Below, piece by piece: positions 453-869 of a DNA stretch of 15,250 nt. Below the pieces are notes generated by a model, which was given only the letters and a program-made list of their open reading frames with translations, made no database searches and was not told the origin of the DNA. Position 1 is the first letter of the stretch; each line of letters opens with the position of its first letter. The DNA comes from a virus: IMG/VR virus record IMGVR_UViG_3300045988_165193, positions 1-15,250 of that record; one strand, given 5' to 3'. The position numbers and the translations under genes are program-made.

Positions 453-869
453 ATGGGATATTATAAATTTGATGAAAAGCTATTAGACAAACAATTTGAA
501 TTTAAAGTAGGTAGTAGAGGATATGGGCAAATGTATTATGGAATAAATAAAATGTTATTACAATTACAATTTAATGTAACAAGTATTGGCTTTTATTATT
601 GGATAACAGCAATACAACAATATAGAAAAAATTATTATAAATACAATAATACAATAGAAAAAGTTTATAATGATGTAGCAAAAATACATAATACTACAAG
701 AACAAGAGTAGAAAGAGCAATGCGAACAGCAAAAGCAACAGCAACAGAACAAATAAAAAAACAATTTAATTATTATAATAAATTAACAAATAAAACAGTA
801 TTAGAATTATTAACACGTAATGCATTATTTATAGAAAAAGTAGATAATCATATACCGCGTATAGATTAG
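453..869 (+). CDS. Stand-alone Spo0A C-terminal (DNA-binding) domain-like protein, no receiver domain
   Basis: 138-aa ORF with RBS AAAGGGGG. The segment IGFYYWITAIQ...IEKVYNDVAKIHNTTRTRVERAMRTAKATA parallels B. subtilis Spo0A IKGYLYLREAI...[31 protein letters not shown], the Spo0A_C helix-turn-helix signature (compared from memory). Confidence 0.7.
   Translation: MGYYKFDEKLLDKQFEFKVGSRGYGQMYYGINKMLLQLQFNVTSIGFYYWITAIQQYRKNYYKYNNTIEKVYNDVAKIHNTTRTRVERAMRTAKATATEQIKKQFNYYNKLTNKTVLELLTRNALFIEKVDNHIPRID

Follow-up and report, generated by a model that had tools for sequence, protein, structure and literature searches.

Why would a small phage encode the DNA-binding domain of the sporulation regulator Spo0A without its phosphoacceptor receiver domain, and on which sites would such a protein act? 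The question is posed by IMG/VR virus record IMGVR_UViG_3300045988_165193, positions 1 to 15,250 of which constitute the whole stretch of DNA analysed here (the window, 15,250 nucleotides) and encode near their left end a 138-residue stand-alone Spo0A_C protein. Comparison with related genomes suggests that the likeliest role of this protein would be the repression of the phage's own terminal promoters, with host 0A sites possibly being bound too, and that the DNA element on which it would act is more widespread among these phages than the protein itself.

The preliminary description of this locus had recognised a Spo0A_C signature in the protein, and profile, sequence and structure comparisons all bear this out. 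In a Pfam search, PF08769 (Spo0A_C) was the sole significant family (E = 3.3e-11; 43.5 bits against a gathering cutoff of 25 bits), with residues 31-113 covering profile positions 1-81 of 104. A phmmer search of the PDB matched Spo0A alone (1LQ1 and 1FC3; E ~3e-3), through an alignment that spans the recognition helix. An AlphaFold2 model computed from an alignment of 85 diverse relatives reached a mean predicted local distance difference test score (pLDDT) of 85.3; an earlier model from 26 close relatives (pLDDT 56) had been too poor for use. With the 85-relative model, the top seven Foldseek matches in the PDB were exclusively Spo0A C-domain chains (1FC3 and 1LQ1; E 8e-4 to 1e-2; template modelling score, TM, normalised by target 0.66-0.78; root-mean-square deviation, rmsd, 2.4-4.8 A), the two best of them at an rmsd of 2.5-2.8 A over 107-117 columns, and the eighth match was already at E ~1. 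Taken together, the Pfam, phmmer and model matches place the Spo0A_C identification far beyond chance. A generic helix-turn-helix (HTH) resemblance was considered and rejected, as both Foldseek and Pfam point to Spo0A specifically. The model, with DSSP-assigned helices at residues 23-37, 45-59, 68-78, 83-95, 98-105 and 113-128, has the helical Spo0A effector fold with its HTH.

Within this fold, the recognition helix corresponds to residues 83-95, RTRVERAMRTAKA, and the string VYNDVAKIHNTTRTRVERAMRTA quoted in the preliminary description to residues 71-93. The helix contains E87, R88 and R91, which line up with E213, R214 and R217 of Spo0A both in the 1LQ1 alignment and in a check of the numbering (the B. 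subtilis numbering is that of the 267-residue sequence, and it agrees with the phmmer alignment to the PDB); these three are the base-contacting residues in 1LQ1. V86, E87, R88 and R91 are unchanged in all 26 close relatives, and the E-R-x-x-R triad is present in 75 of 85 distant ones. The likeness to the C-domains of B. stearothermophilus (1FC3) and of B. subtilis in complex with DNA (1LQ1) therefore covers the helical HTH fold (TM by target 0.74-0.78 for these), a recognition helix of the form NTTxxRVERAxRxA with aligned E, R and R, and the K-x-T-N motif of the last helix, which is kept. The differences are equally clear: identity is only ~25%, and the phage protein has neither receiver nor hinge. 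In Spo0A, the surfaces that activate sigma-A and sigma-H are helix alpha-E and the C-terminal region. Opposite helix alpha-E, presumably the sigma-A-activating region, the phage segment is shorter and mostly dissimilar, with only F105/Y107 equal to F236/Y238. In addition, the phage protein has a 30-residue N-terminus and a C-terminal NHIPRID tail, both peculiar to its subfamily. Motifs of the form (N/T)HIPx(I/L)D stand at the extreme C-terminus of relatives 38-60% identical to it, despite varying linker length, and the tail, lying outside the Spo0A_C fold, may be a docking peptide.

The absence of a phosphoacceptor receiver, likewise claimed in the preliminary description, stands. Merely 30 residues precede the Spo0A_C domain, a Pfam scan of the 138-residue protein gives no Response_reg match, and the products of the two genes ahead of it (g1 and g2) were assigned to no family in a Pfam scan. 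Against TIGR02875, the NCBIfam equivalog for Spo0A, the protein reaches 26.1 bits where 200 are required, over profile positions 166-233 of 262; judged from these profiles, the protein is not a Spo0A orthologue. That an isolated C-domain binds 0A boxes without phosphorylation, the premise from which the preliminary description had argued, is stated in the literature for the isolated Spo0A DNA-binding domain and its targets, the 0A box being common to Bacillus and Clostridioides (PMC3485338). Since it has no receiver, the phage protein should be equally independent of phosphorylation.

Further, the protein is part of a family of its own. A search of 5.8 billion proteins yielded 262 homologues above 72% identity, almost all of them on metagenomic contigs of ~15 kb; a 90%-identical NCBI protein is titled 'MAG: Sporulation initiation factor Spo0A C terminal [Bacteriophage sp.]', and UniProt and BFVD contain several viral proteins so named. 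Gene order is conserved in the contigs of relatives that were fetched, and some related contigs carry the label human gut metagenome. At greater distance, 356 relatives emerged when 1.84 billion cluster representatives were searched with a profile. Among the best 150 of these, nearly all are stand-alone proteins of 90-160 residues, a few of 230-450 residues comprise two to four Spo0A_C domains in tandem, and none is of the size of full Spo0A (~270 residues); Pfam Spo0A_C was matched by 84 of the 85 representatives scanned (E <= 1e-3). The (N/T)HIPx(I/L)D tail closes 11 of the 150 representatives (carriers include P0121, P0122, P0125, P0131-P0133, P0137, P0141 and P0148). By these sequence comparisons, receiver-less Spo0A_C proteins make up a diverse lineage of their own, of which the phage protein is a member. 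A recent truncation of a host spo0A was also considered and discarded, as its nearest kin are short stand-alone Spo0A_C proteins. As a side observation, P0165, P0169, P0172, P0228, P0241 and P0254 (230-450 residues) have tandem Spo0A_C domains of canonical type (AIEVAW...KPTNSEFIA), again without a receiver.

The gene runs from an ATG at 453 to a TAG at 867-869, and the stop of the preceding gene, at 448-450, indicates tight coupling between the two. It is the third gene in the operon of the left terminal promoter, within which g1, g2 and the Spo0A_C gene are closely packed; the 53-residue g1 product is apparently hydrophobic, judged from its sequence. Ratios of nonsynonymous to synonymous substitution rates (dN/dS) for the Spo0A_C gene between relatives are 0.08-0.33: the gene is real and held by purifying selection. 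A non-functional remnant was dismissed on the strength of these ratios and of the conservation over hundreds of contigs. Since its operon lies behind the terminal promoter, its expression can reasonably be taken to be early.

The genome in which this gene resides is of phi29 type. The window comprises an entire linear phage genome (28% G+C) flanked by inverted terminal repeats (ITRs) of 119 nt that are 100% complementary. It encodes a phi29-type major capsid protein, connector, lower collar, gp9 tail knob and gp16 packaging ATPase, together with a protein-primed type B DNA polymerase, and no integrase turned up among the open reading frames (ORFs) scanned. The earlier characterisation as a virulent-type small phage agrees with these ITRs and gene complement. 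The INPHARED phage collection gave no match by megablast (DNA) or tblastn (protein).

Each ITR holds a copy of a sigma-A-type promoter, of which the left one is conserved in relatives and is predicted to drive the left operon, and the right one would drive the right arm (Table 1). The perfect 0A box TGTCGAA occurs at two sites genome-wide, both within the ITRs, where it follows the -10 element after 5 nt and overlaps the expected start site of transcription. The box is found at the same place in close relatives, and it is kept in all relatives with enough upstream sequence, bar two single-mismatch variants. It is also found there in L009/L039, L010 and L011, despite an identity of only 37-40% between their Spo0A_C proteins and that of the window, and in metagenome contigs (L103, L105-L108, L111, L113, L114, L116 and L120); among such contigs with enough upstream sequence, all but one, a TATCGAA variant, have it. 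When the terminal promoters are anchored on the -35 element alone, TGTCGAAAG is constant and the 5 nt between -10 and box vary freely. A single relative, L012, has lysine in place of the R214-equivalent (VEKRMRE), the only such R-to-K change among the relatives, and no TGNCGAA occurs across its 7.9 kb; this is suggestive, albeit a single case.

These observations lead us to propose that the phage protein would be a constitutive 0A-box binder that sits on the start sites of both terminal promoters and represses them, its own operon included, a reading which we consider about evenly balanced between right and wrong. In this model, a phosphorylation-independent HTH protein of Spo0A type, produced from the operon of the left terminal promoter, would recognise TGTCGAA through its Spo0A-like E/R/R recognition-helix residues. 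Its occupancy of the box over the ITR start sites would obstruct RNA polymerase, in the manner of Spo0A at abrB and at the early promoters of phi29, and would thereby impose negative feedback on early transcription from both genome ends, the gene's own expression included. The binding to the box, the repression, its timing and any effect on the host are all what we infer from the comparisons above and below. The functions put forward earlier for the protein were mimicry of, or competition with, the host regulator so as to block or force sporulation, and autoregulation of its own 0A-box promoters; among these, it is autoregulation that gains comparative support, from the position of the box and its conservation in diverged relatives.

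The placement of the boxes would also suit a control of replication, in which the protein, bound ~110 bp from each genome end, modulates protein-primed initiation as Spo0A does at the phi29 origins. The boxes do lie inside both ITRs, and Spo0A near the phi29 origins blocks initiation (PMC2731898). However, a box over the transcription start site points first to transcription, and the right-end box is missing in some relatives, so that we give replication control very little credence.

Several observations weigh against repression of the terminal promoters by the phage protein. The box shows no genome-wide enrichment (2 copies for an expected 1.1, a count reached in 58 of 200 shuffles), and enrichment was not significant for the perfect, the TGNCGAA or the one-mismatch forms; the claim of enrichment was accordingly dropped, and the case for a 0A-box operator is built on where the box lies and how well it is conserved. 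Dimeric Spo0A usually occupies tandem boxes, yet the ITR promoter has a single box. A tandem second box at an offset of 10-11 bp was searched for by eye and not found; a further candidate, an imperfect TGTTGAA on the other side of the promoter, is present in some relatives only; in phage Nf, Spo0A does bind this variant (PMC2731898). Within the close clade, the left-end box directly adjoins the ribosome-binding site, and at the right end the RNA copy of the box can pair with a segment ~90 nt downstream. The right-end promoters of some relatives are without the box. Finally, the box is equally conserved in phages that have no gene for the protein (L040, L090, L095 and the clade L061-L080), and the gene is dispensable and repeatedly lost (L040 has an in-frame deletion, L028 a remnant and L100 no gene).

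Two of these points, ribosome-binding-site adjacency on the left and RNA pairing on the right, mean that part of the box conservation could have other causes. In the predicted right-end RNA, the 5' end UGUCGAAAGGAUAA pairs with UUAUCUUUUCGAU in both the minimum-free-energy and the centroid structures, at a z-score of only -0.94. On the other side, the L011 box lies ~20 nt from the ribosome-binding site, a spacing which indicates that ribosome binding does not explain the box. One could thus suppose that the protein is a Spo0A-fold regulator with another DNA specificity, for example a switch at the internal promoter at 2872-2901, with TGTCGAA being kept for the 5' leader, for RNA structure or for host Spo0A alone; the left-end adjacency, the right-end pairing and the persistence of the box without the gene would all suit it. 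It has to contend with base-contacting residues that are identical to those of Spo0A and invariant, with the conservation of the exact 7/7 0A consensus in two otherwise differing promoter architectures, and with the internal promoter, next to which no 0A-like site was found. We hold a different specificity to be very unlikely.

The relation between box and gene was traced in 78 related genomes gathered through the capsid protein, in which a six-frame search with the family profile found the gene only in L026, L032, L037, L038, L039 and L057. Many of the other genomes are truncated at the left end, and five are left-complete without an intact gene. Among these five, the left-end box TGTCGAA is kept in L040, where an in-frame deletion leaves a 59-residue ORF, in L028, with only a remnant of the gene (22 bits), in L090, with only a weak trace, and in L095, from which the gene is absent; L100, also without the gene, reads CGTCGAA. 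The L040 ORF (385-564; IMG/VR UViG_3300045988_145275; capsid identity 95%) joins what in the L039-type protein are the N-terminus and the ...THIPCID tail, the whole DNA-binding core between them being gone; to judge by its sequence, L040 is a natural knock-out of the DNA-binding domain. More distantly, a clade of ~14-kb phages (L061-L075 and L080; capsid ~60% identical) has a differing promoter with an extended -10 (TGnTATTATAAT) and, in the same six-frame profile search, no detectable Spo0A_C. Here, TGTCGAA is found 2 nt after the -10 element, in several members at both ends, the ITR promoters of this sister clade reading TGnTATTATAAT, 2 nt, then TGTCGAAAG(A/G)CAA (e.g., at 181 and 14004 in L064, and at 263 and 14062 in L065). 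A palindromic clade-B element TGTC-N4-GACA was separately entertained and dropped because its GACA half is not conserved.

As related phages without a Spo0A_C gene conserve the box, it is not there only for the phage protein. By these genome comparisons, the operator is a trait of the whole phage group, and the Spo0A_C gene an accessory that is gained and lost. By analogy with phi29, the box most likely first served host Spo0A: since gene-less related phages keep the same box, the ancestral state was probably a phi29-like sensing of host Spo0A~P that would silence the phage in sporulating cells, and the subclade would later have acquired an always-on effector copy of its own. The sister clade would then be a candidate for host-Spo0A-responsive gut phages. 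The same facts could be read in another way, namely that the box serves host Spo0A only and that the phage protein is a competitor, on the box or in mixed complexes, which averts stable silencing by dimeric Spo0A~P and lets lytic growth proceed in cells that enter sporulation. In keeping with this, the box predates the gene and occurs more widely, the gene itself is an accessory acquired by one subclade, and the protein has neither receiver nor dimerisation domain. Yet binding 5 nt downstream of the -10 element should in itself hinder RNA polymerase, and nothing points to a weaker or non-repressive binding; competition of this kind appears improbable to us.

The phage protein could also occupy host 0A boxes, and these could even be its main target (abrB-like, spo0A, sigH and spoII promoters, or oriC). 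It would then either mimic Spo0A~P, driving the cell into sporulation with the phage genome trapped in the spore, or block Spo0A~P, keeping the cell vegetative and productive. Such a role is suggested by recognition residues that are the same as in Spo0A and by the activity of the isolated domain without phosphorylation (PMC3485338); it has been put forward for the spo0A homologues of gut phages (PMC10294663), and the spore entrapment of phi29 shows that this is a real strategy in the phage group (PMC2731898). Against it, the activation-helix segment differs, which makes mimicry of activation doubtful, and the frequent loss of the gene among near-identical phages suits a modulating role over an essential takeover. 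Moreover, the sole hint of a host comes from phage contigs binned with metagenome-assembled genomes (MAGs): L013 (CASEGV010000040.1, 15,088 bp) and L014 (DBFJJM010000092.1, 14,541 bp) are whole genomes of the clade filed as bacterial MAG contigs, the MAGs being named 'uncultured Mycoplasmatota bacterium' and 'Candidatus Merdicola sp.' (NCBI: Clostridia incertae sedis). This binning may be a weak host hint or mis-binning. A search of genome contigs with the endolysin returned two MAG-binned whole-phage contigs and weak matches to CW_7 repeats. By analogy, the hosts presumably make Spo0A. On balance, we find a chiefly host-directed protein unlikely, if worth keeping in sight. Rather more speculative still is a combination in which the phage has internalised a sporulation checkpoint: its own always-on effector, acting on the ancestral operator and on host 0A boxes, would provide a self-contained early shut-off and perhaps, independently of the phosphorelay, lead the host to sporulate and to enclose the phage genome in the spore.

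How do these proposals relate to known systems? Truncated, effector-only spo0A genes have been described in human-gut phages, with an inferred independence from host signals (Schwartz et al., 2023, mBio, PMC10294663). The present case resembles theirs in being phage-encoded, of gut origin and an effector domain without a receiver, and leads to the same inference. It differs in that the available text of that paper gives no phage 0A boxes, phi29-like link or target, whereas the gene here can be assigned to a defined clade of phi29-like phages of ~15 kb, in which its predicted promoter bears a conserved 0A box. In phi29 and Nf, host Spo0A binds 0A boxes (including TGTtGAA), represses early promoters and blocks the initiation of replication, which permits entrapment in the spore (PMC2731898). 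The present phages share with these systems (Castilla-Llorente, Meijer and Salas; PMC2731898) the genome type and TGTCGAA at early promoters near the genome ends, and the expected outcome would likewise be repression of early transcription and a link to sporulation. In contrast, the regulator of phi29 and Nf is supplied by the host only, whereas the subclade described here encodes a receiver-less copy, and the boxes here lie inside ITRs of 119 bp (6 bp in phi29), directly after the -10 element.

By function alone, the protein may be compared to p4 of phi29, as a small, early DNA-binding phage protein that would repress early promoters. The p4 protein regulates the transition between early and late transcription and also activates the late promoter; unlike it, the present protein showed no relationship to p4 in sequence or fold, and no site for late-promoter activation was found in this genome. 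A further parallel is offered by phage homologues of sporulation sigma factors, which can alter dormancy and for which an effect on spore yield was shown experimentally (cited in PMC10294663 as its reference 13). They belong to another protein family and work by another mechanism, and the phage Spo0A_C is known here from its sequence. No experimental study of a phage Spo0A_C was found in a full-text literature search, and a 2024 review of phi29-like phages mentions neither Spo0A nor sporulation (PMC11476376). A phage-carried, receiver-less spo0A is thus already published, and this genome is a further member; what appears to be undescribed is the link to a ~15-kb phi29-like gut clade, the conserved 0A box on the gene's promoter, the box predating the gene, and the natural loss variants.

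Table 1. Features of the left operon, the ITRs and the Spo0A_C gene in the window
Feature	Positions	Strand	Basis
Gene for stand-alone Spo0A_C protein, 138 aa, stop included	453..869	+	ORF and translation
Helix-turn-helix codons, residues 68-95	654..737	+	DSSP helices H68-78 and H83-95 at pLDDT ~98
C-terminal tail NHIPRID, outside the Spo0A_C fold	846..866	+	Conservation in relatives; low pLDDT
Ribosome-binding site AAAGGGGG	436..443	+	Direct sequence reading; 9 nt 5' of the ATG
g1 (131-292, 53 aa) and g2 (295-450, 51 aa), operon genes ahead of Spo0A_C	131..450	+	ORFs; tblastn conservation in relatives
Sigma-A-type promoter TTGACA-17-TAATAT, predicted driver of the left operon	75..103	+	Consensus scan; conserved in relatives
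Terminal promoter, right-end copy; predicted driver of the right arm	15148..15176	-	Consensus scan
Perfect 0A box TGTCGAA, predicted operator	109..115	+	Motif search; 5 nt after the -10
Second perfect 0A box, same placement relative to the right-end promoter	15136..15142	-	Motif search
Imperfect box TGTTGAA 5' of the -35, possible weak second site	50..56	+	One-mismatch search; in some relatives only
Left ITR, holding terminal promoter and 0A box	1..119	.	Arm comparison
Right ITR	15132..15250	.	Arm comparison
GC-rich hairpin, then TTTTTAT; likely to terminate the left early operon	2840..2863	+	Sequence; palindrome flagged in scan
Perfect consensus promoter TTGACA-18-TATAAT	2872-2901	+	Consensus scan

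The hairpin and the consensus promoter in the last two rows probably mark the end of the left operon. Several other features of the genome deserve a record. The endolysin (1444-2211) combines a glucosaminidase domain with two CW_7 repeats (1945-2057 and 2089-2201) that are encoded by a 144-nt tandem duplication, 93% identical. From g2 to the endolysin, the left arm is a mosaic among near-identical phages, with g4 and g5 variably present and the endolysin type exchanged in L095. Downstream, the ORFs 2216-2440 and 2592-2852 match the N-terminal (profile 2-48) and C-terminal (103-140) parts of Phage_lysozyme2; at the same position L004 has an intact 192-residue gene, and L005 a Peptidase_M23 gene instead. 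The Phage_lysozyme2 gene of the window thus looks split, either as a pseudogene, through a frameshift or stop, or through an assembly error. The 645-residue tail or appendage protein encoded at 6661-8598 contains a Lactamase_B segment (residues 146-339; Pfam E 7e-7) of the metallo-beta-lactamase fold, and its syntenic counterparts in L004 and L005 are annotated PF09992 (NAGPA) instead. Between the convergent arms (the left ending at 8598, the right at 8640), a perfect palindromic hairpin with a 10-bp stem and T-runs on either side (8597-8620) is likely a bidirectional terminator; the only Rfam match, to sraA (E 0.36), falls on it and is probably due to chance. At the right end, ~240 nt of G+C-richer, non-coding sequence (14890-15131, minus strand) lie directly 3' of the ITR promoter and before the first right-arm ORF (14883), which is the expected place for a phi29-type packaging RNA (pRNA). 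A permissive Rfam scan found no pRNA or other RNA family, and this segment is shared with L058 alone (89% identity), other relatives having different sequences of 150-250 nt there.

Phage spo0A homologues have so far been known only as sequences, and this genome offers a concrete target in the form of a 138-residue protein and a 60-bp promoter fragment with a single perfect 0A box. Nature also supplies the controls, in near-identical phages that have lost the gene, one in-frame deletion of its core and one mutated box. If binding and repression hold true, the Spo0A-dependent silencing and spore entrapment known from phi29 would extend to abundant, uncultured phages of the gut, and a phage would have replaced a host signal by a constitutive regulator of its own, which would bear on how such phages persist in, and are transmitted with, spore-forming gut Clostridia.

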